The notes under the pieces were generated by a model that was not told where the DNA came from, made no database searches, and worked only from the letters and a program-made list of their open reading frames with translations. Of a stretch of DNA of 64,000 bases, positions 7,127-57,108 are shown piece after piece (within the stretch, counting starts at the first letter, position 1; every line of letters begins with the position of its first letter). The DNA lies in NCBI GenBank assembly GCA_047967505.1, contig CM106538.1, one strand, 5' to 3'. Source of the DNA: Dipteris shenzhenensis (Eukaryota). A program made the position numbers and the translations under genes.

Positions 7127-9450
7127 TCTCCCATGAGAGTCGATGGAGATGACTCTTAGCAGTAGCATATGGATAGGTCCTCGTGCTCATGGAACTTAAC
7201 AGTTGGTTGGCCCGTGGTTGATAGCGCTTCTCACGACTACTCTAGTATTCTTTTCAAGTCTAATATAGCTTGGTTTGTATTAGAGCTATCAGTGTGTCAG
7301 TCACTTTGTACACCGAATACGTGTTGTGTTTTACCTTTGTGGCATAGTGTGTAGGGACTCTTGTAAAGTCGCAACAAGCCCCATAGAGATCACAACCAAT
7401 AGTTGGTGTGAGAGAGGACTCAACTATGTGTCACCTCTTTTTATCAGTCCTGTGAGCCTTTGTGGCTAGTTGTTTATATTTCCATAACTTAGTTGAGTCG
7501 GTTGACATGATCTCTTTCTCTTCCATAACAATCATCATTTTATGTGAGGTAATTATCATTTTATCTGAAGCTAGTAAGCTCTAAAATCCTAAAGTTGGTA
7601 CTAGAGCATGGTCATGAGGGCTTGAGAAGAGAGGAGAGTTTTGTTGATGTCAAAGTACTCTTAACTTTCGATACTCACAGATCGTGGAAGTATAAGGAAA
7701 TGTATGAGATCTCAGAGAGTTTTGACTTCACTTGACATTTTGGTAGAAGCCTCATTTCATCTACATTTGAATCTACACCATTTGTGAAATGGATAAGGGG
7801 GATAAACAAATTATGTTCTCATTGTCTTCAATGGAAAAAATTTCCCTTCATGGCAGTTAGCGACTCGATTACTCTTCATGCAAAAGGGTTATGGGGAATT
7901 GTAGCAAATATAGAAAAGAATCCCAAAGGGACTACATCAGAGGTAGATAAGAGTGCCTAGAATATGAACAATGAGAAAGCTATTGGCTATCTAGGTCGAG
8001 CACTAGCTCCTGATTTCTTCCATCATCATGATACAAAGAGCACAGTAGCAAATAATTGGAGTACATTAGAAACACTTTTTGGGCTTCGTATGAAACACTC
8101 TAAAGCCAAATCTCAAACAAGAATTGTTTGACTTGAAGAAGAATATGGGCGAGACATTAGGAGTGTTCTTAAACAAGATGGAAGTATTGTTAAGGCAACT
8201 AAGCACACTTGGAGCAAAAGTGGAGGATAAAGATAAGAAAGCTATTCTACTCAAAAGCATACCAGTAGAACAGTTCGGGGAGATAGTGAGAATTCTTCAA
8301 CTTGATGATAACGTGGATTTTTTGGACTGTGTCAGTGTGAAGAAAAGCTCAACCACACTTCCATCTATGACTCAAGGGCATTTGTTGCGACAGACAAGAA
8401 GAAGAAGAAGAAGACAGACAAGAAGAACAAGACTACACACGACACTAGAAGGTGCAATTATTGTGGAAAAGGACACTTGGAGAAGTTTTGCTTCACAAAA
8501 TAGAGAGACGAGCTATTGAAGAAGACCAAGGAAAAGGAAGTAGCCGTTGAGGAAGATGATAAGAAGGATACATCGATGCTCGTTGAAGTGGATCACCTTA
8601 GTGATCAAGACTATGCTTTCTAACTCAGAAGGGTAGTAGTAACTGCCTAGAATTAGGGTCTCTGTGACAAATTTTTTAATAGCCGTTGAGTTCTTTGTGA
8701 ATGAATTGATGGTGTAGCTCTTTGTGAGCATTATTAGTTTTCCTTTGTGGATGTTTGTTTTGGTTTGATAACTCTTTGTGAGCAGGTGACTGTCTTTTGT
8801 ATGCATGATCTCCCCATTTTGGCCAAGGGGGTGTGTGTAGGCTTTAAGCTTGATTATAGTACATCCTCATGGGGAGTTCCATAGTTGTTGGAGAGCTCAA
8901 AAAGGAGGTGGCACGTGTTAATTGTGCATGCAACCTTTTATGAGGATCTACAAGGTAGCTTATTGTCACCTTGAGGAGCCCCTCTAGCCCAATAAGCTCG
9001 TGAGCTTAATCCATGCAGAAGACTCTTGGTAGGAGCATATGGATAGCTTGTAGGCAACCTCGTGCTCGTGGACCTCAATAGTTGATTGGCTCGTGGTTGC
9101 CGGTGCTTCTGTTAACTACTTGAATCTTCTTTTCAAGTCTTATATAGTTTGATTTGTATTAGAGCTACCAGTGTGCCAGTCGCTTTGTACACCGAATACA
9201 TGTTGTGTGTTTTGCCTTTGTGTGGCATAGTGTGAAGGGACTCTTGTAAGGTCACAACAAGCCCGTAGGGATGCATGACTAGTAGTTGGTGAGAGAGAAC
9301 TCGACTATGTGTCACCTCTATTTATTAGTCCTATAAGCCTTTGTGGCTAGTCGTTTATATTTCCATAACTTAGTTGAGTCGGTTTACACAATCTCATTGT
9401 GAGGTGTATTTATCATTTTATGTGAAGATAGTAAGCTCGAAAATCCTACA
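7127..9450 (+). mobile_element. Gag-only Copia-derived LTR element (TR-GAG-like): partial 5' LTR 7127-7593, degenerate Met PBS 7596-7607, gag about 7788-8640, PPT, 3' LTR about 8836-9450
   Basis: Diverged direct repeats (7150-7593 vs about 9020-9450, ending AAATCCTAAA and AAATCCTACA), PBS TGGTACTAGAGC, Copia gag with knuckle CNYCGKGHLEKFC, and PPT CCAAGGGGG. No pol domains lie between gag and the PPT. Confidence 0.75.
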
Positions 9451-34015: not shown

Positions 34016-34416
34016 TTGGGTTCAAGGAGAAGTGCCTTCACCCTTAGTGTTGGTTGAGGGATATGAATAAAAGTGACACTATCAAGAAACCACACCTTGG
34101 CACATTTTATGAGTGTAGGCCCAAAAGAGAGGAAAAGCATGACTCTTGTGAGAGGGGTAGCATCAGGAAATTACACCTTGGCATGTTTTATGAACTCGTG
34201 TAGGCTCGAGAAAGCATGATTCCCTTTGAGCCGTGCATCACCAGCCTCAGAGGGCGAGAGGGTTCATCTCCCATATCTTCCACTGCATTCCAAGGACAAC
34301 CTTCCTTGAATGCGTATTCTTTAAGGAGGCCTATAGAGAACCCATCGAGGGTGAGACTTGGACTACCCATCTTGGGCTAGCAATTTGCCAAGGCTTGGGC
34401 TACCAGCTTAGTAGGC

Positions 34417-35889
34417 ATGGCGCCTAGTTCAAAACCCCATGCCGTGGTGATCCCCCTCCCAGCTCAAGGGCACATTGCTCCCATGATGCACCTATCCAAG
34501 AAGCTTGCGGCCGACGGCTTCACTATCACTTTCGTTCTTACAGAACACCACCATGCCATCTTGGTGCGCACGGAGCCTGTACTCAAGGGGGAAGGTCTTG
34601 ACATTCGCTTGGTTGGACTCCCGGACGGGAGAGACTCCGGGAGTACCTCTGGTGAGGACAATACCATAGAGATGTGCAAAGCTTTCTCAAAAATGGAGGG
34701 CGTCCTGGGAGAACTTATTGGCAGGCTCATGAAGGAGGATCCGCCGGTAACGTGTGTCGTCTCAGACATACTTGGGGTATGCACGCAAGACGCCGCCAAC
34801 AAGTTTCGACTGCCGAGGCTGGCTTTCTGGACCGAGTCAGCAGCAACGTATGCTTGTATTATGCTGGCCTTGCAAGGATTCCGAGCTTCGGAAGGTAAGT
34901 CCATAACTACGCCTGATAACGTCAGACATTATCCATCCCTAGGAAGAGTTTTAATTCAATCGTGGATTTCTGCAGAGCCTTTACCAATAACCGCCGTCCC
35001 AGGAACGCCACCCCTCAAGTTTACAGACATGAATTCGTTTGTCCGAATCTACGATCCGCAAGATTTCATGTGCAGCTTCTTCCTGGATTCTTTTGCCAGG
35101 CTCGATGAGGCAGCTTGGATAGTTGTGAACACCTTCGACGAGGCTGAGCATGATACCCTGCAAGCTCTGAGAAAGCAGCACCAGATCTACACAGTTGGCC
35201 CTCTGTTGCCAATTTCTTTTTTCAATGGCCCGATGGATACCAAATTCAAGACGGCGGTGCTCTGGCCGGAAGAATCAGACTCTATACGGTGGCTGGACAA
35301 GCAACCATCCAGCTCGGTTCTCTACGTCTCCTTCGGAAGCATCGCAATACTATCGCGGGCACAATTCGAGGAGCTGGCTTTGGGGCTGGAGACAAGCCAG
35401 CAGCGGCTGCTGTGGGTGATCCGTTCGGACCTACTGCACGGAGACTCTATTCCGGAGGGCTACTTGGAGAGGGTGAAGGATCGTGCGTTCTTCGCGTCGT
35501 GGGTGCCGCAGCTGCAAGTGCTATCGCATCCGGCAACGGGCGGGTTCCTAACACACGCAGGATGGAATTCGACGCTGGAGGGCATAGTAGCAGGGGTGCC
35601 GATGCTGGCATGGCCATATTTTGCAGACCAGGGAATGAACAGGAGGTTCATAGTGGATGGGTGGAAGGTAGGGATGGAGATGGAAGCAAGCGAAGGCGAG
35701 GGGGGGGGGATAGTGAGGAGGGAGGAGGTGGAGAAGAAGGTGAGGGCGTTGATGGGAGGTCATGAATCCAAGGAGCTGCGCAGCAATGCTAAGAGGTGGA
35801 AGGCAGCAGCTCAAGCAGCTGTGCAGGAAGGAGGCTCTTCAGCTCGCAGCTTGGAGGCCTTGCTTAAGGCCATGCACCTTAGTGAGTGA
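34417..35889 (+). CDS. Family-1 UDP-glycosyltransferase (UGT85/86-like), probable exons 34417-34894 and 34976-35889
   Basis: N-terminal KPHAVVIPLPAQGHIAP with catalytic His; complete PSPG box WVPQLQVLSHPATGGFLTHAGWNSTLEGIVAGVPMLAWPYFADQ; terminal GGSS; GTAAGT...TTCTGCAG intron at 34895-34975. Confidence 0.95.
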   Translation: MAPSSKPHAVVIPLPAQGHIAPMMHLSKKLAADGFTITFVLTEHHHAILVRTEPVLKGEGLDIRLVGLPDGRDSGSTSGEDNTIEMCKAFSKMEGVLGELIGRLMKEDPPVTCVVSDILGVCTQDAANKFRLPRLAFWTESAATYACIMLALQGFRASEGKSITTPDNVRHYPSLGRVLIQSWISAEPLPITAVPGTPPLKFTDMNSFVRIYDPQDFMCSFFLDSFARLDEAAWIVVNTFDEAEHDTLQALRKQHQIYTVGPLLPISFFNGPMDTKFKTAVLWPEESDSIRWLDKQPSSSVLYVSFGSIAILSRAQFEELALGLETSQQRLLWVIRSDLLHGDSIPEGYLERVKDRAFFASWVPQLQVLSHPATGGFLTHAGWNSTLEGIVAGVPMLAWPYFADQGMNRRFIVDGWKVGMEMEASEGEGGGIVRREEVEKKVRALMGGHESKELRSNAKRWKAAAQAAVQEGGSSARSLEALLKAMHLSE

Positions 35890-38040: not shown

Positions 38041-38464
38041 ATCACTGCGCTTGGAGGAGCCTGTCACTCCTCCCTCTTCTCGGCTGTCCACTTATCTGCT
38101 CTCATCTCACAGGTGAGACTGCACTCTATGTGGCAAACTCTCTGCCTCGCTGCCCACGTTGGATGTCTCATATGCTTCCTGGCTTACCATTTGAAACGTC
38201 CTCTGCCTGGCTTAGCAGTGCTAGAACATTTCACCTCCCAATATGACTCTAAATGAATTCGCTGATTTTCTATTCAATCATGATAGAAAAAAAACTTGGG
38301 CGTTCACACTTTGGTTTGAGAGTAAATGAAAGATATAACTTGAGCTAGACTGCACTCAGATTCCTATTTAGTAGAACTGTCGAGACTTATATCTATGTGC
38401 GCACGTGCTAGGGCTTCCAAAAATACAAAAGAGTATAGATGTATGATCTGAAAGAAGATGTTTT

Positions 38465-38890
38465 AACAGTTGCTGTCAATTTTGTGCCTTGGAGTATTTC
38501 CATTAGGTTTTGCTCGTATGGTATATTGATTGACAATTTTTCCCACATGATAAAATTTTTGAATTTGTAAAATTCATTGTGCGATATCTATTTTTTACCT
38601 TGGGGTATTTCTGCAAGGATTTGCTCATATGGTATATTGTCTGATCTTGTCTTAATTACCTTAAAACCCAAAATAAAAGAGATTACAGATGCATGATAAT
38701 GTTTTTACACATGCTGTCAACTTTGTACCTTGGAGTATTTCCGTAAGGTTTTGCTCAAATGATATATTTTTTGACCATGTTTTCAACATAATTTTTTTAA
38801 AATATTTGTTGAGTTCACTATGCAATATCAACTTTGTACCTTGGGGTATTTCCACAAGGATCTGCTCATATGGTATATTGGCATGATCTT
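38465..38890. repeat. Tandem repeat, period about 120 bp, 4 copies
   Basis: TTTGT.CCTTGG.GTATTTC....GG.TTTGCTC.TATGGTATATT near 38480, 38592, 38723 and 38833. Confidence 0.9.
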
Positions 38891-38957
38891 AACTTTGCAA
38901 TTGTCACATAATTTTAAATTTTCTGTCTCTTAACTTTGTATTTTGCTTTTGTTTAGG

Positions 38958-40463
38958 ACGTGCTAAACGTATTGACATGGCAACCAAAGAACATTCCAAA
39001 GAATTAAAGAGGCTTTTTGCCTATATTCAAAGAGAAGTACTCTTACTCATCGCACACATGGACAAGACAATGATCGGAAAAATTAGGGACGATGACACTC
39101 TGCTAGATGTATTCAAACAACATGTGATGCAAAGGCTAAATAAAATCAAAGAGGTGTCAAAGATACGAGATCAAGTAAAAGACATATTTAAAGATGTAAC
39201 TTGGTCAGAAGAATTGAAAAAGCATGTGACGACCATCATAGGAAACATCACATATCATGCACAATATGTAGATGAATCACTAACTTCGAATGAGAACTGT
39301 TTGGCTTGGCATAGTATGTGGAAACAAAGGAAAGCTCGTGGTTTATGAGCAAATTTGTACGTGCTAGCTAAGAAGAAGATTGGTCCAAATCCAACCGAGG
39401 AATATGTACATGCTAAAAAAAACACATCGGACAATGCTTCTATGTAAGAAGTGGACAGTACTGCTGCGACTTTTCCTATAGCAACCTATATTGCTTGGCT
39501 ACAAGATCATGCATATGAAATATATAAGGATAAAAAAATCGGCGCTAGGTTTGAAGGCCAACAAAATCAAAGGAGTATTAGGGATCAGTCTGATTGCTTA
39601 TCATGTAACCAAGAGTTTTAAAGGCAATGCAGAGAAAAGGGAGTCTACTTTCATGAAGGAATCAACAATGCAAGTTAAACATAGCATCCGAGTCCCCGGC
39701 CAATTGCTATGTCAATAAGTGCACCACATTGGATTTTCATGCCATATTTTAATGGAGGGACACTATACACATTTTTCAAAGAAACCAAAAAAAGGTTCAT
39801 ATATTGCAAACTTGAGTTAGATACAAAGCAAATCCCTGCAAATAACATAGAACAGGTTGGGACACTGGTACCAGAACTTTGTTTTTCTCTTTGCCTCGGC
39901 CTTCAGAAGCTGCACGAACAAGGTTGGATCCACAATGATTTGCATAGCAAAAATGTCCTTCTGGACTACGCAGCTACTATGTGAGTGCGGATTGATATTT
40001 GTGACTGGGGACGCCCTACATATATAATAAATTCAAAGGAGAACTTGTTAGCTAGACATTCTAGTGAGGAAGATACTGAGTACAAGAATAGAATTGAACT
40101 CGAAAGAGAGAGACTTAGCAAGATGGGATGGCTAGCTCCTGAGCTATACAATGGTACTACAAAAAAACCTTGGAGTACATCTACATTGGACATTTTCTCT
40201 CTAGGTTGGATATTCTCAGAGCTTTGTAAAATTAACCTTTACATAGCAAAATATGTACCTAGTTTATAGATTGTCACAGACCAAGCACAATAGTCAAGAG
40301 ATGTTAAACTAGTCCAATACATTTCCAAAAGGATGCTTAAACAACATCCAAATGACCGCATATCACTAGAGAGTTCATGCAATCTATTTTCATCGAGGAG
40401 AATCAAGCCTGATATATGTATGTGACCATTACAAGAGATGGGAGATGATATGATCCCAAATTA
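38958..40463 (+). pseudogene. Protein kinase with a helical N-terminal extension, divergent non-RD type
   Basis: HVTKSFK (subdomain II), FMKES (III), MPYFNGGTL (V), IHNDLHSKNVLL (VIb), ICDWG (VII), WLAPELY (VIII), DIFSLGWIF (IX), HPNDRIS (XI); stops and frameshifts. Confidence 0.88.
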
Positions 40464-41449
40464 ATTTTTTGATGTAATAAAGGAAAATCGAATATACAAA
40501 GTCATTCCATGCTGGCTGATCCTATATTCTATGTTTACATTGAATTCATAACTATTTAAAAAGCAAAAAAAGTTATGATATGAAGTTTTGAATTCCGGAG
40601 TTTTTAATAAATAAGTTCTAATACAGTAAAGATAGTATATCATCAACTTATGAGTAATTTAATTCAAGATAGTGGATTGACTAATTTCAAGTGTGCGACT
40701 AGTCCATGCAAACTACTTTTTTTTAAAGATCCAAGAAATCCCATTACAAGCTAGATTAATAATTTATTGTTCAATGATACCATATTTTGACATTGTTTTA
40801 TTATTTTTTTAACGTATTGCAGATGCATATGCTTGGTCTGTACAAGAACTTGCATGACGCTAAACTTGGAATATAGATACGCTCATTGAGATCCAGGTAA
40901 TATATTAGTCTCCTACCTAAGTCGCAATACTCAATCTCGACGCCTATATTCTCAACGATTTTAACTTCAGCGCACGGGGAAGGGCCCGTTCCCTCACATT
41001 ATAACTCTTTGGGGAAGGAAATGCGCTGCCTCCCCACCCACACTATGTGTGGTTATATAAACTATATATACATATATATATATATATAAATATATTTTCC
41101 ATTTGATATTTTTTTAAATAAATGTCTTTTGCATATTCTAAATTCTTCTTTTTTTGTTTCTGTGTCGAGGTGTTCGCAAGAAGGGAACGCTCAACCACAC
41201 ATGTCACTTTGACAGACCTGCTATTGTCAACTTAATTTATAATCAGGTATTTCTCTTTTTTTAATTTCTTAAAAAAAAAAGAAGGAAACTTTACAATAAG
41301 GGAAATCCTTCATAGTTTTGCAAATTTCATAAAGAAGAAACTCGCTACTTCAAGTTTGTTCTTTATTAATGTTGGATTATTTGTAGAACACATAAACTAA
41401 TTCTGTACTCACTTGCTTACGATAAATGCATGACACCGACATTTAGAAT

Positions 41450-42300
41450 AATGGCAATAGATAGGATCATCAAGAAATGACGCCTAGCTATACCTAAGGA
41501 CATTAGACAAAAAGAAAAGAAAATTAGAGCCCTCAACAATATCCTGGATGTTTCTAGACAGATTGCTAAGTGAATGGAATAGTGACTGCTCGCAACACAT
41601 TAAGAAGCTACAATTTTGTGCATCATGTGGAAAATGCGAGGTTTGGATTGGGAAAAGCAAGAAACTTACTGGGAAATTAGATTCATAGATGCAATAGTGC
41701 TTGTAAGACCGATCCAGACTATTTGCCAAGTGCAAGTATGGCTTTCCTTTCGACAACCATCCAAAGACGAAGGCATCTGTAGATCCACAGACCTATCGAT
41801 GGATGTACTACCGACTCAGCCAATAACACCAGAATGTGGTCCCATACTATGCTACAGTATTGGTATTATGGCAAGGGCACATGAACATTCATAGAATCAC
41901 AAATACCGGCCTCTCATACTACTTGCTAAAGTATGCCATGAAGACGAAGCCTATAGGAAATCTAAACTTGAATATTGAAGATGCAAAACGATTGGGCCTT
42001 GAGACACTTGATCCATTAAAGTCAAAGATGATTACCGCATATATGCTATCCAAGCCAACATCACCAACCGAGGCAACATTTACAAGTACCCACTATTCAT
42101 CGTAGCGAGGCTTCGTAGCGAGGCTGTATACTTAGTCGACTCCTCACCATTAGAGCTTCGACAAAGGTACTTGCGAAACTACTGTGTCACAACAATCCAT
42201 CCTATCGATACATATTATGGGCATCCAAGCATACTAGAGTAGCTTACATTTTATGAACATTGGAAGTCATTCACACCCCAAAAAGAACGAAGGCACAATA
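41450..42300 (+). pseudogene. Helitron Rep (HUH/Y2) domain remnant, internally deleted
   Basis: HRCNSAC..KCKYGFPF..RWMYYR..NVVPYYATVLVLWQGHMNIHRI..YYLLKYAMK contains the YxxKY catalytic motif. The HUH motif is not visible; an N-terminal CASCG abuts the HxC motif. Confidence 0.8.
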
Positions 42301-42339
42301 CAACACAAGGTACAATGATAGACTCATTCAACAACTATG

Positions 42340-43625
42340 TATATCCGACCTCGACCTTGACTGAAGATCAAAGAGCTATTTACCATAACATTTTTGAGAT
42401 AGCAACGGGGCTGCATATTGTTTGTGGCACACCTGGGTTAGGAAAGACGTTCATCACCAAGTACATAACTTATCATCATGTCCTACACAGGAAGTCCATA
42501 GTCTTGTCAGCGATGATTGGTGTTGCAGCATTATGATTGAGCCATCTTGCGACAACAGTCCATCATCAATTCGCACTTCCAAAGAAGAATGAGATGTTTC
42601 ATAGCACACTTTTCAAATTAGACGATCACTATTTTGCATTGCTCACTGCAGACACCATCATCATCGATGAGATATCCATGATGACATGTCAAATGATGAA
42701 CATGTTAGTCTGACAACTGTGTGAGATTTGCAACAGCAATACTCTAGATCCATTCCACTCCAAAAAGCTAATTCTTTTTTGTGACATGCAGCAGCTCCCG
42801 CCAGTATGCAAATGCAGAGTTGCTCCTAAGGAATATTGTCATAAGTGTCACATCAGCAACTCACCTTTCTGGAGAATGGCTACATTTCACCATATGCATG
42901 CCTCAATCCGGCACTTAGAAGATCCATATTTCAACAGCTTCTTAAACATCATTTGCACTATAACACCAATAGAAGATCAGATTAAACAATATCTCGTTGG
43001 GACAATCATCACAGATGAGGAGGCACAAAGCTTCATCGACACAGAGACCATTGATTTGTGCACGCACAAAGAGGATGCACAACAATATAACAATAATATC
43101 CTGAGATCACAATTTCCAATAACTGACATCATGCGAGTACAGGTTGTATAGAATGCAGATAACATTCCAGAATTACAAGATTGGACAATCGATCGGGATT
43201 TCCATGAGCTTCAGCACGTAGCAATTGGTGCTAGGATCATGCTAACAAAAAATATTAATTTGACAATAGGATCTGCCAATGGGGCAATAGCAACTATTCG
43301 TAACCTGGAGTGGCATGAAACAATAGGCATGTTGACAAAGATTCATGCCATTATCTCTTCCACATGTGAGCCTATTACACTCAGATGCTCGAAGCACACA
43401 CGAAAGGTCCTGAACGCGGAACTTGGTACCACAAGACAACATTTCCAATCACACTCGCATATGCGATAACCAGACACAAGTTACAAGGCTTGACACTACA
43501 TGGAATGATATTAATCATTATACGTGAATCGTTTGCTCCAGGATTGATGTATGTTATGCTGTCTCGAGTCACGAGCCGCCGGTGACATCTTCATGTCTTG
43601 CATAGCATAAAACCTTTCGACTTCG
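42340..43625 (+). pseudogene. PIF1-family helicase (Helitron Hel domain)
   Basis: GTPGLGKT, IIIDEISMM, CDMQQLPPV, GARIMLTKNINLTIGSANG, FPITLAYAITRHKLQGLTL, LMYVMLSRV. Confidence 0.93.
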
Positions 43626-43868
43626 TGTGCCCATGCCTCATATAGTATACCCACAATGTAATTAAAAAAGGTAATATCCCTTCACCATCCATGAATCGAT
43701 ACGATATTTTTATTAATTAATAGCTAAAATGCTAAATATACAGTTCAGCATATAATCTCAAACCTGTGCTTTGAAGCCAATCAAGCATTCTACATTCCTT
43801 CCTTGTATAACTTAGTCACTATTTATTTTGGTAGATCGTACAAAAGGGATGCCTCTTTTTTTCAAAAA

Positions 43869-44585
43869 ATGGCTACTACAAAAGAGGTACGTATGCATGC
43901 GTAACTATTTTCTTTGAGAAAACCATTCTATTTAACATCAATCTACATTTATTCATACATTCATTTTCATTTTTCAGCTTTTCCAACCATTCAAACGAAA
44001 AGCTATAGAAAAAAAGGAAGATGAAGAATGCGCCTTAAAAAAACATAAAAAAGAAAGCAACATTTTCTTCAATGATAAATAGATGAGAAGAGCAAATGTG
44101 GCAGGCATGCAACCACAAGAATTAGTATCTTTGGATTTAACTCATACGAGAAATACCATCCCTTGATGGCAAAAGTAACGCAGATTCTGCAGCATAGACC
44201 TAGGGGGAGCAACGAGCTCATAGATGGATTGATAAAACACATTATACAAAAGCTATCCAATGTCTAGGAGACCATGGATGAGTTGTTGCCCTGCACAAAA
44301 GCACAAGTGATACTTGATAAACATACCAAGGGAATACCAATCTTTTGCATAACAATTCTACACTTTGCCTTCAACGTCGAACTTGAAGAGCTTGCCAATC
44401 TTGACAACCAAGTAGCTGATAGCATATCACAACAATTCAAGGATGCATACAATCTACAGCAAGGCAAATGGCCAATAACCATTGACAAGATAGCATACAA
44501 AATTGATCTAGAATTTGGAGAAAAAAACTAGGGGCCATCAGCAGCAATCTTCCCAAAAAGCAGCCTAACCCTACCCACAATACAT
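43869..44585 (+). pseudogene. Unknown intron-containing ORF downstream of the helicase, cut by Copia insertion
   Basis: Short exon ATGGCTACTACAAAAGAG|GTACGT, acceptor TTTTTCAG at about 43977, then a long mostly open frame (ORF 44274-44531). No recognisable motif. Confidence 0.45.
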
Positions 44586-47500
44586 TGAGAAGATTGTGGA
44601 AGAGAGGGAAGGAGTCTCACTTGCGGCTTTCTCACATGCATAATGGGGGAATACACACAAAGGTGGAGGCTGAAAACAATTTTCCTCTTCTTAGTTGTGA
44701 AAGCCAAAAGAACACAAGTACAAAGAAATAGAAGAACCCTATATGTGGGTCTCAAAACCAAACTCAACTAACTAAGGTGGCATACTAACTGAGCCACGAA
44801 CTAGTGTAGATAAGGATAGCTGTCATCCAGCTATTATTCATGGGCGGTGTACCAACCGCATCTCCAGCTAACAAGTCGGTGACATAGGTACACAACGGTC
44901 ACCCTAGCATATCTCGAGTGGAGCTCGATATCTCAAGACTCCCCCTCGAGCTCAATCCCAAATCCTGCACACCAAGTAGGTCTCTGAACTTGCGCAGCTT
45001 CTTTGCGCCCAATGCTTTCGTGAATATGTCAGCTACCTGATCCTCTGTGCTGACATAAACTAGATCAATAAGACCTAGTAAAACCTTCTCCCGCACATAG
45101 TGATAATGCACCTCAATGTGCTTTGTTCTGGCATGAAAGACTGGGTTCTTTGCCAAATGTATACTACTCATGTTGTCACAATAAATGACAACCGGCCCCC
45201 ATCTGTAGACTGATGCATATCATAGAGTAGCTTATGCAACCAAGCTACCTCACATGCAGCCATTGCTGCACCCCTGTACTCAGCCTCTATGCTTGACAAG
45301 GCAACTGTAGGCTGTTTCTTGCTGCTCCAAGTGACTGCAGCACTCCCAAAAGAGAACACATATCCACTGGTAGATCGTCTATCTGAAATACTACCAGCCC
45401 AATCAACATCAGTGTATCCATGGAACTGTATCTGAACCCCAGCCTCATAAAATAGTCCATACTGCAATGTGGACTTCACATACCTGAGTATGCGTCTAGG
45501 CGCATCCAAATGCGGTTTCCTTGGAGCCTGCATAAACTGACTTACCAACCCAATAGCATAGCTCAAATCTGGCCTGGTAATAGTCATGTAAATCAAACTT
45601 CCTACTATGCGTCTGTACATAGTAGGGTCTTCCAGAAGCTCACTTGCATCTGTGCTCAGCTTCACATTCTGCTCCAAAGGAACTGAAATAGGCTTATAGC
45701 CTGTCATCCCATATTTGGACAGCATGTCCAATCCATACTGCCTCTGCAAGAGCTGTATCCCACTTGGTGATCTAATCACCTCAATTCCCAAGAAATAACA
45801 CAGCTCTCCCAAATCTTTCATCTCAAACTTCTGCCTCAATAGCATTTTCACATGAAGGATATCTTCATCACTATCACCTGTGATGATCAAATCATCAACA
45901 TAAATGACCAGCAGCATAATCCCTTTCTCTGTTTTTCTCACATAGAGTGAGAAATATGCCTTGGAAATCTGAAAGCCAATAGTGACAAGATACTGTCCTA
46001 TCTTGTCAGACCATGCTCTAGGTGCTTGCTTCAAGCCATACAAGGCTTTCTTCAACCTGCAAACAAACTCAGGATGAGTAGCATGAACATAACCTGCTAG
46101 CTGCTCCATAAAGACCTCTTCTTGCAAATCACCATGCAAGAAGGCATTCTTTACATCCATCTGATGTAAAGACCATCCCTTTGACGCAGCCATAGCAATG
46201 GCTGCTCTTACGGTTGCCATCCTTGCAACTGGGCTGAAAGTTTCTTCATAATCAATGCCATATCTCTGTGCATACCCCTTGACAACTAATCTTGCCTTGT
46301 ATCTATTCACAGAACCATCTGCATTGTGCTTGATCTTATAAGTCCACTTACAACCAATTGCATTCTTGCCTTTAAGCAAAGGCACCAATTCCCATGTAGC
46401 ATTAGCATCCAAGGCATCCATTTCTTCATCCATGGCTTTCTCCCATTTTTCATTTCCCATGGCTTGCTCAAAAGAAGTGGGTTGTGGTTCCTGTATCACT
46501 TTGACCATATAGGCATAGTGAATGGCTGTAAATCCATCATATTTCAGCCTATCCACAGGATACCTAACCCTGGTAGACCTGCACAAAATAGGCTCACTTC
46601 CAGGTGCTCTCAAAACATCCCTCGTCTTCCTTACTCCAGGTGTAACAACAGAAGGAATACCCAACTCATCATCAATGCTCTGTTCTGAGCCACTGGATTC
46701 ACCATCCACACAAGAGTGACCTGCATTCACATCATACATGGGCTGATCTACCTTCTCTTTCCCTTTTCATGATACTTGCGTACCACTCTCTGCATTGCTT
46801 TGAGGGGATTCTCCTGATCTCAATCTGCCTGTGTCCATGGCGAAGTATGTGAACCACTGGTAGAGGACACTCCAGGTCCACTGATATTTTGTGATTGCTG
46901 CTGTGCATTCTGTGCAGCATTACCATTTTGTGCATCTACATCAATCATCACATTTACGGGTTTATACCAGCTGCTCATCTCATCAAAAACAACATCTCTG
47001 CTCACTGTGAACTTACGTGTAGAAGGGTTATAGCATCTATACCCTTTCTGCTGCAGAGAATAACCAATAAAGACGCACTTCTCAGCTTTTGGATCCAACT
47101 TGGACCTCAGCTTATCTGGCACATGGACATAGGCAATGCAACCAAAAATCTTCAAATGAGAAATATCTGGTTTCCTACCAGTATACATCTCCTTTGGCGT
47201 CATGCCATGTATTGCTGCAGTGGGAGTCCTATTCATTATATAGACTGCTGTAGCAACTGCTTCAGCCCAATAATAATATGGTAGATCTTTTTCATTTAGC
47301 ATAGCCCGAGATACCTCTCCAATATGCCTGTTTTTTCTTTCTGCAATTCCATTTTGCTGTGGGGTATGACTGCATGAATATTGATGGTATATACCATGCT
47401 CCTGCAAGAACCTTGCAAACTCATTTGAGAGGTACTGTCCCCCTCCGTCTGACCTTAGGCATTTTATTTGCAGGCCTGTTTCTTTTTCAACCATAGCTTT

Positions 47501-50103
47501 GAAAGCTTTGAAGTGTCCAAACACTTCACTTTTCTTTTTCATAAAATACACCCACAGTTTTTTGCTGAAGTCATCAATAAATGTGATAAAATAGTGACAG
47601 CCTCCAATAGATGCAACTTTTGTAGTCCACACATTAGAGTGGATTAATTCCAATGGCTTCGTACTCTCTTGAACATGCCTAGGAAAAGGTTTCCTTACCT
47701 GTTTCCCAAATTGACAGGCTTCACAAACCTTGTGCATTTCTGCAACCTTGAATTTAGGCAATCCTGCAACAATATTTTGGGCTTGCATTGATTTAAGTCG
47801 CTGTATATTAACATGACCGATGCATTTGTGCCAGATATCAATATCTGCAACTACACCGGTCCCATGTGCAAACATTGCTGCACTCAATTCAGACATGTCT
47901 GCATCCAACGTAAACATCCTGCCCTTCTTCTTTCCTTTTGCTATCAAGCGACCATTATTTTTCATATCCTCAACAAAGCATCCACGAGGATTAAATCTGA
48001 CCTGCAAGCCCTGCTCAACCATCTGACCAACAGAAACTAGGTTCTTGGTGATGTTCGGGACATGAAATACATCAGACAAGTATTTCTTTTTCCCATCCTG
48101 CATAGACAAAGGAATTTTGCCAAGCTGCACAATAGGATGTGCAGTATCATCACCAGTCTCCACAAATCCTGGCTTTTCCATTCTCCTTGCATCTTACATC
48201 CATTCTGCATGACCTGTCATGTGGTTTGACGCACCTGAGTCAACATACCACACATCATTTTGTTCTTCTGCACTTGTCACAGAATTGGTCATATGCTGCA
48301 CCATAAATAGATGCTCATTTCTATCATCACCCTGCCTGCTAGAAGATGCATAATTACCTTGTTGCAATTTTCCATTCATAATGTCATTCTGCTTTTTGTA
48401 GCAGTCCTTAGCCATATGACCCATTTTGCCACAATAGTAGCATTCAACATTGCTATTTGCATTTTGGCTTCTCTGCCATCCACCATGACCTCTTTGGCTC
48501 TCCCTGACTCTAGAGTTACCATGTCCTCCTGCATAGGACTGGTTTTCTCGCGTTTGCTGCATATTCTGATTTCTACCACGGCCTGCAGATCGGCCTCCTC
48601 TACCTCTACCTCTACCTCTACCAGCATTTGAGTAGAAGACAATTTCTTTTGAAGTTCCTGCTGAAGAAGATGCACCACCATTTCTCTGCTCTTCAGAAAT
48701 TAGAAGAGCAATCAGCTCCTCAAAATCAGAAAATTTTTCACGGACGGCAATGGATGTCCGGAACTATGCATAATCCTTTCCTAGACCATTCAAGGTCACA
48801 GAAACCAAATCATCATCATCCACTGGCTCAAATTTTCTCTCTGCACATTGTGCAACTCTTGTTTGAGTTGCATTTTCCTGGCTTGCGTATTTGTGCTGTA
48901 CATTTTTGCCAAAGTATCCCATGCCTCCTTTGGCGTATTTGCATCCTGAATATGCACAATCATGGAGTCCGAAATGCTGATAGATAGCCAGTACATAACT
49001 TTCCTGGCTCTCTCATGCCATCCTTTGAATGCCTGCATTTCCTGTTGACTGGGAACATTAGGAAGAACAGGTTCTTCTTCATTTCCTGTAATGAATTCCC
49101 AATAGCCTTTTCCCATCAAGAAATTCGTCATTCTAAACTTCCATGCCTGGAAGTTGTTCTTGTCAAGCTTTTCAGTGACAATCTGTGAAAGAGAATCATA
49201 TGCCATTACACAACACTGCAAAATATTATGTCACTGCAAAAAACACAGCTTTTGCCTCACACGGGCAGATCTGCAAAACTGACAAAAGTGGTATTTCACC
49301 ACACAGTCACTTCCTAGTGACGATTTTGCATCAACAGGCAATAGGCATCAATCTGCAACTCCCAATATCTCTGCACACAGGCATACGATGCAATTTCTGT
49401 GGCACCTTTCCACCGATTAGCCGCGCAGTGGTCGCACAGCCAAAAACAGGGCCTTTTTCTGAGTGCCTGCAAAGGACTTCCGCCTTCAAAACGGGCCCCG
49501 AAACGGCCTCAAATCAGAAAAATAACCTCACTAGAGGCTTTGCCCTGTCCTGCAGCATATACTGCGCTCTCGCAACACCGCGAAGGGCGTCTCAATCTGA
49601 AACAGTGCACTCCTGCACTTCTGGCTGTGCTACCTGCAGAGATTTGCTCCCAAACTCAAAATAGGAAAGCAACACTGGTCCTCTTACCAGGACACCACGA
49701 ACTTGGCTTGCTTTCTTGAGCTCCTTACCATGAACAAGGCTCTGATACCATGAGAAGATTGTGGGAGAGAGGGAAGGAGTCTCACTTGCGGCTTTCTCAC
49801 ATGCACAATGGGGGAATACACACAAAGGTGGAGGCTGAAAACAGTTTTCCTCTTCTTAGTTGTGAAAGCCAAAAGAACACAAGTACAAAGAAATAGAAGA
49901 ACCCTATATGTGGGTCTCAAAACCAAACTCAACTAACTAAGGTGGCATACTAATTGAGCCACGAACTAGTGTAGATAAGGATAGCTGTCATCCAGCTATT
50001 ATTCGTGGGCGGTGTACCAACCGCATCTCCAGCTAACAAGTCGGTGACATAGGTACACAACGGTCACCCTGGCATATCTCGAGTGGAGCTCGATATCTCA
50101 ACA
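44586..50103 (-). mobile_element. Complete Ty1/copia element A (defective gag-pol about 44899-49206); LTRs 44586-44938 and 49751-50103
   Basis: 353-bp near-identical LTRs, TSD TACAT, Met PBS 49739-49750, PPT 44939-44947, gag-PR-INT-RT(YVDD)-RH order, frameshifts and a small gag deletion. Confidence 0.97.
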
Positions 50104-50210
50104 TACATAACATCCTTTCGAAGTATATATATTTTTCCATATAATAGATTTAACTTTCACTCATACTTTATTCAATTTTATGAACAGGAGACACAATTAA
50201 GGAACCAACC

Positions 50211-50460
50211 ATGTCAAACAACAATACCACATCGGTAACAAATTTTATCTATTGCATCACTTGTCTACGAAATGGGAAAAAATATATTGGACAACTACAT
50301 ACATTGAAACACGTCTGAAGTGACACAAAACTAACCCACCATCTAAAATGATCGATGATGTCCATAAGTACAAACCATTTGAAAAACACTTCAACGTGGT
50401 CTTGGCATTAACTCTGAATATAGTGGAAGCGAATAACTTAGAACATCAACTCGAATGGCC
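50211..50460 (+). pseudogene. GIY-YIG endonuclease domain
   Basis: Manual translation: NFIYCITCLRNGKKYIGQ, 1-nt frameshift, TTYIETRLK*HKTNPPSKMIDDVHKYKPFEKHFNVVL..EANNLE. The (G)IY and YIG motifs, Arg, His and the downstream Glu are at the expected spacing. Confidence 0.8.
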
Positions 50461-51319
50461 CAACCAGGACTGGGCATTTTGATGATTCTATAGCTTGGCT
50501 ACGATGTCGACCACCTGGATTTGATGCTTGGAAGGATATTTGATTGAGCTATGATGCTCAAGAGTGTGTTGTGTGGACTATGATGTCCTTTGTTTCGTGA
50601 AGCTATGAGGTTTTGATTTTGTTTGAGTGGTTAGTTGTAATGGTGACAAGTTCGGTAGGAATGAGCCAAAATTTTTGTTGTGATTTTCTGTTGACACCCT
50701 CTTTGGATCAAGGAGGGTGTTGGAGGGGTGATCCTTGTAGGAGTGGTAGCAAAGACACAAGTTTGGAGACTGCTCACGATTGGTTGATGTTTGCTGGTTG
50801 GCACTTGGTCATTGGACCATGCAAGTGATCAAGTGTCATTGGAGAATCAAGCAAGACGTGGACACTTGGTAGTTCAAGAGAAGAACTACACGTTGCATGG
50901 AGGTGGTGATCCTTGACGATTACAAAAGACTTCACATCGAGTTGATATGTCCTTTTGTCATGATCTCATGAAGAGCATGAGAGCCATGAGGTCAGAGTTT
51001 GATAGATAGTCCTCCGTTGTGCAGTTGTTCATCAGTATACTAGGTTATAGTCGAGTCTTCTTAAGCCAAAAAACTTGGTAGAGTTGAGGCGTAGATTTTG
51101 ATTGAATAAAGGGATTGATTATGTGATCTATTTTGCCTTCATCTGATCGTGTCATGAGATTATCTATTGAGTAAATATTTCTTAGTTTATGCGAAGAGTG
51201 AATCTCACAAGCAAAGGATTGTTTATTCACTCTGATTTCCAACACTTTTTGCATGCTGAAAAGTAAAGTCATTAGCCACAAAAAAGTTAGTATTTCATGA
51301 CTCATGGTGGTGGATAGTG

Positions 51320-54300
51320 TGAAGAGAGTGGGAGAGAGGTAAGGAGTCTCACTTGCAGCTTTCTCACATACACAATGGGGGAATACACACAAAGGTGGAG
51401 GCTGAAAATAGTTTTCCTCTTCCCCTCGAGCTCAATCCTAATTCTTGCACACCAAGCAGGTCTCTGAACTTGTGCAGCTTCTCTATGCCCAATGCCTTTG
51501 TGAATATGTCAGCTACCTGATCCTCTATGCTGACATAAACTAGATCAATAAGACCTACTAGAACCTTCTCCCGTACATAGTGGTAATGCACCTCAATGTG
51601 CTTTGTTCTGGCATGAAGGACTGGGTTCTTTGCCAAATGTATACTACTCATGTTGTCACAATAAATGACAACCGGCCCATCTGTAGACTGATGCATATCA
51701 TAGAGTAGCTTATGCAACCAAGCTACCTCACATGCAGTGATTGCTGCACCTCTGTACTCAGCCTCCGTGCTCGACAAGGCAACTGTAGGCTGTTTCTTGC
51801 TGCTCCAAGTGACTGCAGCACTCCCAAAAGAGAACACATATCCACTGGTAGATCGCCTATCAGAAATACTACCAGCCCAATCAACATCAGTGTATCCATG
51901 CAACTGTATCTAAACCCTAGCCTCATAAAATAGTCCATACTGCAATGTGGACTTCACATACCTGAGTATGCGTCTAGCCGCATCCAAATGCGGTTTCCTT
52001 GGAGCCTGCATAAACTGACTTACCAACCCAACAGCATAGCTCAAATCTGGCTTGGTAATAGTCATGTAAATCAAACTTCCTACTATGCGTCTGTACATAG
52101 TAGGGTCTTCTAGAAGCTCACCTACATCTATGCTCAGCTTCACATTCTGCTCCAAAGGAACTGAAATAGCCTTGCAGCCTGTCATCCCATATTTGGACAG
52201 CATGTCCAGTCCATACTGCCTCTGCAAGAGCTGTATCCCACTTGGTGATCTAATCACCTCAATGCCCAAGAAATAACACAGCTCTCCCAAATCCTTCATC
52301 TCAAACTTCTGCCTCAATAGCATTTTCACATGAAGGATATCTTCATCACTATCACTTGTGATGATCAAATCATCAACATAAATGACCAGCAGCATAATCC
52401 CTTTCTCTGTTTTTCTCACATAGAGTGAGAAATCTGCCTTGGAAATCTGAAAGCCAATAGTGACAAGATACTGTCCTATCTTGTCAGACCATGCTCTAGG
52501 TGCTTGCTTCAAGCCATACAAGGCTTTCTTCAACCTGCAAACAAACTCAGGATGAGTAGCATGAACATAACCTGCTGGCTGCTCCATAAAGACCTCTTCT
52601 TGCAAATCACCATGCAAGAAGGCATTCTTTACATCCATCTGATGTAAAGACCATCCCTTTGATGTAGCCATAGCAATGGCTGCTCTTACGGTTGCCATCC
52701 TTGCAACTGGGCTGAAAGTTTCTTCATAATCAATGCCATATGTCTGTGTATACCCCTTGACAACTAATCTTGCCTTGTATCTATTCACAGAACCATCTGC
52801 ATTGTGCTTGATCTTATAAACCCACTTACAGCCAATTGCATTCTTGTCTTTAGGCAAAGGCACCAATTCCCATGTAGCATTTGCATCCAAGGCATCCATT
52901 TCTTAATCCATGGCTTTCTCCCATTTTTCATTTCCCATGGCTTGCTCAAAAGAAGTGGGTTCTCGTTCCTGTATCACTTTGACCATATAGGCATAGTGAA
53001 TGGCTGTAAATCCATCATATTTCAGCCTATCCACAGGATACCTGACCCTGGTAGACCTGCGCAAAATAGGCTCACTTCCAGGTGCTCTCAAAACATCCCT
53101 GGTCTTCCTTACTCCAGGTGTAACAATAGAAGGAATACCCAACTCATCATCAATGCTCTGTTCTGAGCCACTGGATTCACCATCCACACAAGAGTGACCT
53201 GCATTCACATCAAACATGGGCTTATCTACCTTCTCTTTTCCTTTTTGTGATACCTGCGTACCACTCTCTGCATTGCTTTGAGGGGATTCTCCTGATCTCA
53301 ATCTGCCTGTCCATGGTAAAGTATGTGAACCACTAGTAGAGGACACTCCAGGTCCACTGATATTTTGTGATTGTTGCTGTGCATTCTGTGCAGCATTACC
53401 ATTTTGTGCATCTACATCAATCATCACATTTACTGGTTTATACTAGCTGCTCATCTCATCAAAAACATCTCTGCTCATTGTGAACTTATGTGTAGAAGGG
53501 TTATAGCATCTATACCCTTTCTGCTGCAGAGAATAACCAATGAAGACGCACTTCTCAGCTTCTGGATCCAACTTGGACCTCAACTCATCTGGCACATGGA
53601 CATAGGCAATGCAACCAAAAATCTTCAAATGAGAAATATCTGGTTTCCTACCAGTATACATCTCCTCTGGCATCATGCCATGTATTGTTGCAGTGGGAGT
53701 CCTGTTCATTATATAGACTGCTGTAGCAACTGCTTCAGCCCAATAATAATCTGGTAGATCTTTTTCATTTAGCATAGCCCGAGATACCTCTCCAATATGC
53801 CTATTTTTTCTTTCTACAATTCCATTTTGCTATGGGGTATGACTGCATGAATATTGCTACTTTATACCATGCTCCTACAAGAACCTTGCAAACTCATTTG
53901 AGAGGTACTCTCCCCCTCCATCTGACCTTAGGCATTTTATTTGCAGGCCTGTTTCTTTTTCAACCATAGCTTTGAAAGCTTTGAAGTGCCCAAACACTTC
54001 ACTTTTCTTTTTCATAAAATACACCCACAGTTTTCTACTGAAGTCATCAATAAATGTGATAAAATAGTGACAGCCTCCAATAGATGCAGCTTTTGTAGTC
54101 CACACATTAGAGTGGATTAATTCCAATGGCTTCGTACTCTCTTGAACATGCCTAGGAAAAGGTTTCCTTACCTGTTTCCCAAATTGACAGGCTTCACAAA
54201 CCTTGTGCATTTCTGCAACCTTGAATTTAGGCAATCCTGCAACAATATTTTGGGCTTGCATTGATTTAAGTCGCTGTATATTAACATGACCGATGCATTT

Positions 54301-54885
54301 GTGCCAGATATCAATATCTGCAACTACACCGGTCCCATGTGCAAACATTGCTGCACTCAATTCAGACATGTCTGCATCCAACGTAAACATCCTGCCCTTC
54401 TTCTTTCCTTTTGCTATCAAGCGACCATTATTTTTCATATCCTCAACAAAGCATCCACGAGGATTAAATCTGACCTGCAAGCCCTGCTCAACCATCTGAC
54501 CAACAGAAACTAGGTTCTTGGTGATGTTCGGGACATGAAATACATCAGACAAGTATTTCTTTTTCCCATCCTGCATAGACAAAGGAATTTTGCCAATCTG
54601 CACAATAGGATGTGCAGTATCATCACCAGTCTCCACAAATCCTGGTTTTTCCATTTTCCTTGCATCTTGGATCCATCCTGCATGACCTGTCATGTGGTTT
54701 GATGCACCTGAGTCAACAAACCACACATCATTTCGTTCTTCTACACTTGTCATAGAATTGGTCATATGCTGCACCATAAATAGATGCTCATTTTTGTCAT
54801 CACGTTGCCTACTAGAAGATGCATAATTTCTTGCTGCAATTTTCCAGTCATAATGTCATTCTGCTTTTTATAGCAGTCCTTAGCC
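51320..54885 (-). mobile_element. Copia element B (same family as A): pol region with internally deleted 3' LTR, 5' end missing
   Basis: ORFs 51364-54777 are nearly identical to element A; only about 100 bp of LTR (51320-51421) is fused to the PPT. Confidence 0.93.
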
Positions 54886-57108
54886 GAAAAGTGCAAGAGT
54901 GCACTGTCTCATATTGAGACGCCCTTCGCGGTGCGGCGAGAGGGTAGTATATGCTATGTGACATTATTTTTCTGATTTGAGGTCATTTCGGGGCCTGTTT
55001 TGGTGGCAGAAGTTTTTCCACAGACACTCAGAAAAGTGGCCTGTTTTGGCTGTGCGACCATTGTTCTACAGGTCCGTGAAAAGTTACCACAGAAATTGCA
55101 TCATATGCCTATGCGTAGAGATATTGGGAGTGACAGTATCATTCTTATTGCCTGTTGATGCAAAATCATCACTAGGAAGTGACTGTGTGGTCAAATACCA
55201 CTTTCGTCAACTTTGCAGATTTGCCTTGTGAGGCAGAAGTTGCGTTTTTTGCAGTGACAGAATATTTTTCAATGTTCTATAATGGCATTTGACTCTCTTT
55301 CACAGATTGTCACTGAAAATCTTGACAAGAACAACTTCCAAGCATGGAAGTTTAGAATGACGAATTTCCTTATGGGAAAAGGCTATTGGGAGTTCATTAC
55401 AGGAAATGAAGAAGAACCAATTCTTCCTAATGTTCCCAATCAACAAGAAATGTAGGCATTTAAAGCCTGGCATGAGAGAGCCAGAAAAGTTATGTACTGG
55501 CTATCTATTAGTATTTCAAGTTCTATGATTGTGCATATTCAAGATGCAAGCATGCCAAAGGAGGCATGGGATACTTTGGCAAAAATGTACAGCACAAATA
55601 TGCAAGCCAAGAAAATGTAGCTCAAGCAAGAGTTGCATGATATGTAGAGAGAAAATATGAGCATCAATGACTACCACATGAAGGTGAAGAAGATTGGAGA
55701 TGCACTTGCTTCCATTGGGTCGCCAGTGGAAGATGATGATTTAGTTTCTGTGACCTTGAATGGTCTAGGAAAGGATAATGCACAGTTCCGAACATCCATT
55801 GCCATCCATGAAAAATTTCCTGATTTTGAGGAGTTGATTGCTCTCCTAATTTCTGAAGAGCAGAGAAATGGTGGTGCATCTTCTTCAGGAGGAACTTCAA
55901 AAGAAACTATCTTCTACTCAAATGCTAGAAGAGGTAGAGGCAGAGGTAGAGCAGGCCGATCTGGAGGCCGTGGCAGAAATCAGAATATGCAGCAAATTCA
56001 AGAAAACCAGTCCTATGGAGGAGGACATGGTAACCTTAGAGGTAGGGGGAGCCAAAGAGGTCGTGGTGGATGGCAGAGAGGCCAAAATGCAAACAACAAT
56101 GTTGAATGCTACTATTCTGGTAAAATGGGTCATATGGCTAAAGATTGCTACAAAAAGCAGAATGACATTATGAATGGAAAATTGCAGCAAGGTAATTATG
56201 CATCCTCTAGTAGACAGGGTGATGACAGAAATGAGAATTTGTTTATGGTGCAGCACATGACCAATTCTGTGACAAGTGTAGAAGAAAGCAATGATGTGTG
56301 GTATGTTGACTCAGGTGCATCAAACCATATGACAGATCATGCAGAATGGATGCAGGATGCAAGGAAAATGGAAAAACTAGGATTTGTGGAGACTGGTGAT
56401 GATACTGCACATCCTATTGTGCAGATTGGTAAAATTCCTTTGTCTATGTAGGATGGGAAAAAGAAATACCTGTCTGATGTATTTCATGCTCCGAACATCA
56501 CCAAGAACCTGGTTTCTATTGGTCAAATGGTTGAGCAGGGCTTGCAGGTCAGATTTAATCCTCATGGATGCTTTGTTGAGGATATGAAAAATAAAGGTCG
56601 CTTGATAGCAAAAGGGAAGAAGAAGGGTAGGATGTTTACATTGGATGCAAGCATGCCTGAATTGAGTGCAACAATGTTTGCACATGGGACCGGCCTAGTT
56701 GCAGATATTGATATCTGGCCTAAACGCATTGGTCTTGTTAATGTACAGCGACTTAAATTAATGCAGGCCCAAAATATTATTGCAAGATTGCCCAATTCAA
56801 GGTTGCAGAAATGCATAAGATATGTGAAGCCTATCAATTTGGAAAACAGGCAAGAAAGCCATTTCCTAGACATGTTCAAGAGAGTAAGAGGCCATTGGAA
56901 TTAATCCACTTTGATGTGTGGACTACTAAAGCTGCATCTATTGGAGGCTGTCATTATTATATCCACTTTTATTGATGACTACAGCAGAAAAGTTTGGGTG
57001 TATTTTATGAAAAAGAAAAGTGAAGGGCTTGGGCATTTCAAAGCTTTTAAAGCTATGATTGGAAAATTGCAAATAAAATGCCTAAGGTCAGATGGAGGGG
57101 GAGAGTAT
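54886..57108 (+). mobile_element. Copia family A fragment in opposite orientation (part of 5' UTR, gag, PR, start of INT), interrupted by Copia C
   Basis: gag from about 55281 (MAFDSLSQIVTE..) through ORFs 55657-57111, ending at LRSDGGGEY. Confidence 0.9.

Follow-up and report, generated by a model that had tools for sequence, protein, structure and literature searches.

What brings a protein kinase-like frame, the remnant of a Rep-helicase (RepHel) transposase and a GIY-YIG nuclease frame together in one co-oriented row is the question raised by a 64,000-nt stretch of Dipteris shenzhenensis DNA (contig CM106538.1 of assembly GCA_047967505.1; "the window" below is this whole stretch, and positions count from its first letter). 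Our analysis indicates that the sequence from about 38320 to at least 50480, minus an inserted Copia retrotransposon (Copia A), is probably one old, inactive copy of a many-copy Helitron-like element with three genes, RepHel, GIY-YIG and kinase. The copy in the window is dead and has internal deletions; its GIY-YIG partner is common to one distant relative and has a printed precedent, and its kinase, which is specific to the lineage, travels with the unit in other copies. Most likely, the working form of the family encoded RepHel, a small GIY-YIG gene downstream and, in this plant lineage, an intron-less kinase upstream. The initial annotation, made from the letters alone, had proposed a land-plant rolling-circle transposon lineage with its own nuclease and kinase as stable accessory genes, a reading that is partly supported by what follows.

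The window is plant DNA rich in transposable elements, with Ty3 and Copia frames across all 64 kb. Copia A is bounded by two 353-bp long terminal repeats (LTRs; 44586-44938 and 49751-50103, 98% alike over the 300 nt compared) and by the target-site duplication TACAT (44581-44585 and 50104-50108), and these coordinates confirm the early observation that it splits a co-oriented series of plus-strand genes. With Copia A removed, the plus strand reads, in order, four short repeats, the kinase-like frame, an AT-rich spacer, the RepHel pieces, an orphan open reading frame (ORF) and the GIY-YIG frame. The kinase, the Rep with its YLLKY motif, the orphan ORF and the GIY-YIG domain are all present about where they had first been reported; overlooked at that stage were the absence of the HUH half of Rep and the broken frames in every gene of the unit, all of which are pseudogenes. 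No second copy of the unit occurs elsewhere in the 64-kb window.

Identification as a rolling-circle (Helitron-like) element, as first proposed, is supported by the alignments of the Rep and helicase pieces, both of which match RepHel proteins. The pieces were placed by tblastn with twelve relatives and by a profile of sixteen full-length relatives (1350-aa protein). The two-tyrosine region of Rep scores 114 bits against the profile, and its YYLLKY motif (41917-41934) falls in a stretch of 117 aa whose identity to two full-length RepHel proteins is 42-43%, while the C-terminal 67 aa of the piece are 51% identical to a third relative, itself truncated. The helicase matches PIF1 with 78.3 bits (E 8e-22), and profile positions 903-1330 map to 42243-43582. 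A PIF1 helicase had been called correctly, but it is not especially compact, as had been thought: it is of ordinary length and spans the whole helicase part of its relatives. The order and spacing of Rep and helicase agree with those of relatives save for a gap of about 155 codons. The HUH half of Rep (profile positions 57-575, including the SLHAHI motif present in 16 of 16 full-length relatives) gave no match anywhere in the window, and because the pieces on either side of it are only 22 bp apart, we read its loss as a deletion internal to the window copy. As predicted from these alignments, the RepHel gene starts near 41.5 kb and has lost about 520 codons, HUH motif included, plus the further 155 or so. 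With the HUH part lost and all frames broken, the window copy cannot mobilise itself. In a working copy, RepHel, which joins an HUH/two-tyrosine nuclease to a PIF1-type helicase, would move the element by nicking DNA, unwinding it and transferring a strand.

Evidence that the unit is repeated comes from two low-coverage DNA sequencing runs of one organism from one study (sharing 0.05 of sampled words), whose contigs were placed on window positions 38300-44585 at 80% likeness. There were 235 and 221 such contigs in the two runs, covering 30 of 30 bins, and their identity to the window was 80-99%, mostly 80-95% (in the classes of 99% and above, 95-99%, 90-95% and below 90%, the counts were 10, 60, 85 and 80 in one run and 8, 41, 88 and 84 in the other). 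Because all bins are covered by diverged contigs, the stretch comprising kinase, spacer, RepHel and orphan ORF is a diverged multicopy repeat. The kinase/RepHel region is not, then, a set of single-copy host loci, the case that the initial annotation had named as speaking against its own reading; hundreds of diverged short contigs cover it. Moreover, deletion joints are seen in the contigs (15 of them listed), including 39685>41112 in both runs and 40890>43578 in one run. These two deletions overlap within the spacer, which rules out a border between two separate repeats there. Since kinase, spacer and RepHel are connected by such joints, it is the family, and not just the window copy, that has kinase and RepHel side by side, as one repeated unit.

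The kinase frame consists of a 123-aa N-terminal part, a linker and a protein kinase domain that matches Pkinase in Pfam with 43.2 bits (cut-off 31.7; E 4e-11) and PK_Tyr_Ser-Thr with 39.7 bits. HND, DWG and APE motifs, matching the HxD/DFG/APE of eukaryotic protein kinases, can be read in it. These matches place the predicted protein in the eukaryotic protein kinase superfamily, as a member with a divergent catalytic domain. Consistent with this, the language-model look-alikes of a 99-aa kinase piece in a protein atlas were generic kinases only (score 0.96), and a PDB search returned only remote kinase matches. The N-terminal 123 aa have no family in Pfam and no look-alike in the protein atlas (best score 0.77). 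A word-indexed search with the read-through of the kinase returned no match at E<=0.001 among proteins of 265-846 aa, which makes a recent capture of the kinase from the host unlikely. Judged by its reading frame, the kinase is a complete intron-less gene that has decayed in the window copy. The stop at 39982 is due to a T in the window where other copies have C, and at the frame slip other copies carry an extra G after 39561 relative to the window; at least two kinase lesions are therefore private to the window copy. We consider that the kinase may have been a functioning passenger gene acquired within this lineage.

Just upstream of the kinase, the initial annotation had described a repeat of four units of 120 bp, and four 77-nt cores are indeed found there, starting at 38452, 38563, 38693 and 38804, with a spacing of 111, 130 and 111. 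The two 241-bp units that they form are 77-80% alike, and Tandem Repeats Finder gave no call for the four repeats at 38449-38890. Contigs of other copies skip single repeat units (joints 38587>38689 and 38819>38929).

On the far side of Copia A, the GIY-YIG fragment scores 28.4 bits against SegE_GIY-YIG (cut-off 25). The superfamily motif appears as FIY-x10-YIG, and the second half of the frame aligns to an ORF of a metagenome contig, L003; these matches place the broken frame in the GIY-YIG nuclease superfamily, which is marked by a domain of some 80-100 aa in which GIY ... YIG precedes a conserved Arg and Glu. We surveyed distant relatives in 46 metagenome loci that carry RepHel relatives, and later in 126 loci (1.65 Mb); in both sets the only match to the window frame was L003 ORF 7169-7507 (E 4e-6 among the 46; reciprocal). 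This ORF encodes a 113-aa stand-alone GIY-YIG protein (PF01541, 30.6 bits, positions 1-75 of 78) and is co-oriented with the L003 RepHel, 2.2 kb downstream of it. Compared pairwise, the window and L003 GIY-YIG sequences match with E 4e-10 and 33% identity over 67 aa (first motif, E 0.001), and the match extends past the catalytic motifs (H..NP...M..DVH.Y.P...HF). The identity of the two GIY-YIG sequences, 33%, is nearly that of the two RepHel sequences, about 34%, a closeness that fits joint descent with L003; two independent uptakes are also possible. A word-based search with the L003 GIY-YIG matched only its own near-copy, and a PDB search with the GIY-YIG ORF gave no match. By analogy with the apurinic/apyrimidinic (AP) endonuclease of Helentrons, which is thought to make the second nick at the target, the GIY-YIG nuclease might serve transposition, for example by making such a second nick.

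Several points weigh against reading the locus as one three-gene element. The N-terminal RepHel segment is a weak match (16.6 bits, E 1.8e-4, profile against the six-frame ORFs of the window), and no terminal inverted repeat, 5'-TC, CTRR end or other terminus was found for the unit. The contigs are just 200-480 bp long, so that linkage rests on joints and overlaps; the run organism may be a relative of the window species, contigs of 99% identity or more being only 10 of 235 and 8 of 221; and the multicopy and linkage evidence from the runs is limited to 38300-44585, with the GIY-YIG side lying outside. Codon third positions, counted among 40 of the 637 differences, make up 9 of 15 in the kinase and 4 of 12 in RepHel, which is inconclusive. 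Among distant relatives, the GIY-YIG gene is found in one of the three with at least 1.9 kb downstream (L003; not L007 or L008), and a kinase was found beside none, either by tblastn in the 46 loci or by Pfam in the flanks of L001, L007 and L008 (92 of 141 flank ORFs were scanned; L002 was omitted as a duplicate of L001, and L003 was scanned separately).

The last of these results favours an alternative in which the kinase and its upstream repeats form a repeat of their own, or a pseudogene of host origin, that was captured by the element or landed beside it and is a passenger without a role. It is further favoured by the frequency of gene capture in Helitron-like elements, for which Li et al. 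2024 list 20 captured domains (PMC11417382), and by the lack of a detectable close homologue, which makes the origin of the kinase untraceable. We nevertheless regard this alternative as improbable, since the joints in other copies run from the kinase into the spacer and from the spacer into RepHel, the 483 codons make up an entire intron-less gene that has a start of its own and is no fragment, the protein search speaks against a recent host capture, and two of the lesions are private to the window copy. The proposal that the kinase is part of the element is supported by its collinearity with RepHel in other copies of the family, but not by the distant relatives examined.

A second alternative, in which an independent nuclease gene, selfish or of the host, came by chance to lie beside the element as the GIY-YIG frame and resembles L003 through the general fold only, has in our view a small chance of being right. 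The frame is short and broken, scoring 24.4 against the cut-off of 25 when 50109-51317 is read through in a single frame; two of the three relatives lack the gene downstream, and the contig linkage stops at 44585, short of it. On the other hand, the sole match in the 126 loci is an ORF behind a RepHel in the same orientation and relative place, the likeness runs beyond the catalytic motifs, and the same association exists in a published family (PMC11417382). As part of the element, the GIY-YIG gene gains a homologous, co-oriented counterpart behind the L003 RepHel, but in only one of three relatives. The idea that kinase, PIF1 helicase and GIY-YIG are the relic of an integrated giant-virus-like genome, to which giant viruses lend some colour by encoding kinases, PIF1-like helicases and numerous GIY-YIG nucleases, as does the phage-type SegE model being the best in Pfam for the GIY-YIG fragment, is hardly credible given that all 80 loci kept from a viral collection match the helicase part only (residues 910 onward, 22-53% identity), with Rep, the kinase and a window-type GIY-YIG in none of them, that the two-tyrosine region is typical of RepHel, and that the unit occurs in many copies, some of them deletion derivatives.

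Returning to the three-gene Helitron-like element, we asked to which subgroup its RepHel belongs. The helicase read-through matched 3140 proteins of a representative library at E<=0.001, with a best identity of 41%; 49 of these were scanned, revealing PIF1 in 49 of 49, Helitron_like_N in 27 of 49, and a kinase or GIY-YIG domain in 0 of 49 (E<=1e-4). The relatives of the window RepHel are Helitron_like_N+PIF1 proteins of 1350-1600 aa, at most 41% identical to it. A profile search gave 17 proteins at E<=1e-10, one of them from the green alga Trebouxia sp. C0004. As a marker of membership in HLE2, the group that includes Helentrons, we used DUF6570 upstream of Rep, as proposed by Li et al. 2024 (PMC11417382). 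It was found in 0 of 16 full-length relatives at E<=1 (the window copy has lost the corresponding region); as a positive control, it was found in 8 of 17 more distant RepHel ORFs, two of these with the Helentron endonuclease. In a helicase tree of 52 rows (a quick search, midpoint-rooted, without an HLE1 reference), the window groups with proteins P0004 and P0005 (SH-aLRT 98), and a 38-row group (SH-aLRT 93) holds the window and all 16 relatives, with four DUF6570 rows on the opposite side. Helraiser, the solved example of the canonical Helitrons (HLE1), scores 62 bits against a full-length relative, a level that PIF1 helicases in general also reach, and 54 bits against an HLE2 protein, a comparison that does not separate the family from HLE2. 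From these results a bolder reading can be drawn, which we offer tentatively and would not favour over its negation: that the unit is a plant member of a distinct DUF6570-less Helitron-like clade, with its nearest relatives in green algae and environmental eukaryotes, in which the stand-alone GIY-YIG is an old, vertically kept partner of RepHel, and that the intron-less kinase of untraceable origin is kept as a working accessory.

Table 1. Features of the Helitron-like unit and of the retrotransposon inserted in it (window positions)
Feature	Position	Strand	Remarks
Four short direct repeats	38449..38890	+	Two 241-bp units, each of two 111-130-bp subunits; adjoin the kinase frame upstream
Intron-less kinase-like pseudogene	38977..40425	+	483 codons, 9 in-frame stops, frame slip at about 39560-39685
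AT-rich spacer	40426..41487	+	Contains (TA)n at 41054-41095; repeated along with the adjoining parts
RepHel N-terminal segment, CAxCG zinc-finger-like motif	41488..41685	+	Profile positions 14-56
Rep nuclease domain, C-terminal part (CKYGFPF ... YYLLKY)	41707..42239	+	Profile positions 576-746
PIF1-like SF1B helicase of RepHel	42243..43627	+	4 internal in-frame stops, one frameshift at about 43400
Orphan ORF	44079..44531	+	151 codons, one stop, no family; repeated in other copies
Copia A LTR retrotransposon	44586..50103	-	Splits the unit; foreign to the element; Pfam-typical Copia frames
Stand-alone small GIY-YIG nuclease pseudogene	50211..50480	+	90 codons; FIY..YIG, then frameshift and stop
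Candidate 3' subterminal features	50499..50718	+	Four CTAYGAKGY motifs and a 12-bp hairpin; candidate members of the element

The ends of the unit were sought on both sides. On the left, no contig reaches past 38300, and one listed contig ceases to match at 38320, a hint, and no more, that the left end of the element lies near there. A search for inverted matches between 38200-38960 and 50480-50760 gave nothing beyond chance (best score 19, shuffle mean 19.7). To the right of the GIY-YIG frame, the motif CTAYGAKGY occurs in four copies within 113 bp (50499-50611), which account for four of its seven matches in the window, and is followed by a 12-bp GC-rich hairpin at about 50692-50718, with no CTRR after it (the fold of 50470-50730 has z = -2.96). 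Motifs and hairpin may be subterminal features of the Helitron-like unit or of another element. An LTR start was also considered within 50480-51317 (a purine tract, then TGTTGG) and rejected: the window holds no paired LTR, and the site is that of the hairpin. Farther right, another Copia, from the family of Copia A, occupies 51318-55600 on the minus strand; where it begins, at 51318, about 100 bp from the end of its LTR are all that is left of that repeat. More nested Copia pieces follow on the plus strand from 55648 onward, making the right flank a pile of rearranged retrotransposons. Because a truncated Copia LTR begins at 51318, the original right flank of the unit is lost.

The AT-rich spacer shows no family in three frames. 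At 41191, three contigs from both runs depart from the window into identical unrelated GC-rich letters, representing either an insertion in other copies or a deletion in the window. Upstream of the unit, an intact 502-aa UDP-glycosyltransferase ORF (34381-35886, plus strand) is located in an island of raised GC content (52%; the surroundings have about 40%); its top solved relatives are plant UGT85-type enzymes (2pq6, E 2.4e-83), and it looks like the sole ordinary host gene of the window.

The neighbourhoods of the distant relatives vary. In L008, a Ulp1-type protease (Peptidase_C48, E 3.9e-10; 7626-7892, plus strand) is encoded downstream of RepHel, at the place taken by GIY-YIG in L003 and the window, so the accessory gene downstream of RepHel differs among relatives; downstream of the L007 RepHel, Pfam recognised no domain. 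Both L001 (1-1500, plus strand) and L002 have, upstream of their RepHel, a HECT ubiquitin-ligase gene that is split, which shows the L001 contig to be eukaryotic host DNA with introns. Two further metagenome contigs (L012, 2-5641, and L013, 4074-10325) encode classical Helentron transposases: their RepHel ORFs are long, include DUF6570 and have Exo_endo_phos at the C-terminus.

Of these loci, L003 (protein P0010) is the closest parallel to the window in gene content: its RepHel is in the clade of the window, and it carries the sole GIY-YIG homologue found, in the same order and orientation. It differs in that its sequence is only about a third identical, its 8.7 kb hold no kinase, and the sequence that separates RepHel from GIY-YIG is unrelated and of greater length. 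Among published families, the likeness is to HelenSM92 of Sphagnum magellanicum, an HLE2 family that carries a GIY-YIG domain (PMC11417382, including the legend to Supplementary Fig. S8) and thus, like the window unit, is a land-plant Helitron-like family with autonomous copies encoding GIY-YIG besides RepHel. With this family already in print, the novelty first claimed for a nuclease-bearing land-plant lineage is weakened. In the same survey, made with HELIANO, HLE2 was found in 13 species from six of the eight land-plant classes sampled (74 species; PMC11417382). HelenSM92 is classed as HLE2 and has short terminal inverted repeats, TT sites and autonomous copies of about 16-19 kb (PMC11417382), whereas the window unit has relatives without DUF6570, no termini found and a kinase; the two are set apart here by description, not by sequence. 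The survey lists 20 stably carried domains, of which the 19 named in its text include no kinase, and the word "kinase" appears nowhere in its main text or in one supplementary file (PMC11417382).

The unit can also be compared with the better-known subgroups. It shares with the canonical plant Helitrons (HLE1) a two-tyrosine Rep joined to a PIF1-like helicase, and passenger genes, but no RPA gene, 5'-TC or 3'-CTRR end was found in it, and the best library matches of its RepHel come from assemblies and from a green alga rather than from annotated plant proteins. HLE1 elements start with 5'-TC, end in a 3' hairpin and CTRR, and insert between A and T; HLE2 elements carry short inverted repeats at their termini and insert between T and T. 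With Helentrons (HLE2 plus AP endonuclease) it shares the principle of a RepHel element that brings a second nuclease, and the Helentron nuclease is likely a suitable working analogy for the GIY-YIG gene of the window. That enzyme, however, belongs to the Exo_endo_phos family and occurs as a C-terminal fusion with RepHel, as in L012 and L013, whereas the window nuclease is a separate small GIY-YIG ORF 1-2 kb downstream.

Plant genomes are reshaped by Helitron-like elements, whose subgroups cut the second DNA strand in ways that are not yet settled. The window copy, being dead, has no present host function; for genome annotation, it represents a repeat family absent so far from protein databases. 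If our reading is true, the kinase borne by the element would be a kind of passenger that goes unreported in the text and one supplement of the HELIANO survey. A clade in which GIY-YIG is retained across relatives only one-third identical would suggest that a second nuclease is needed time and again and that each lineage has its own enzyme for the purpose, and the GIY-YIG partner would be a third solution beside those of the RPA-carrying Helitrons and the AP-endonuclease Helentrons.

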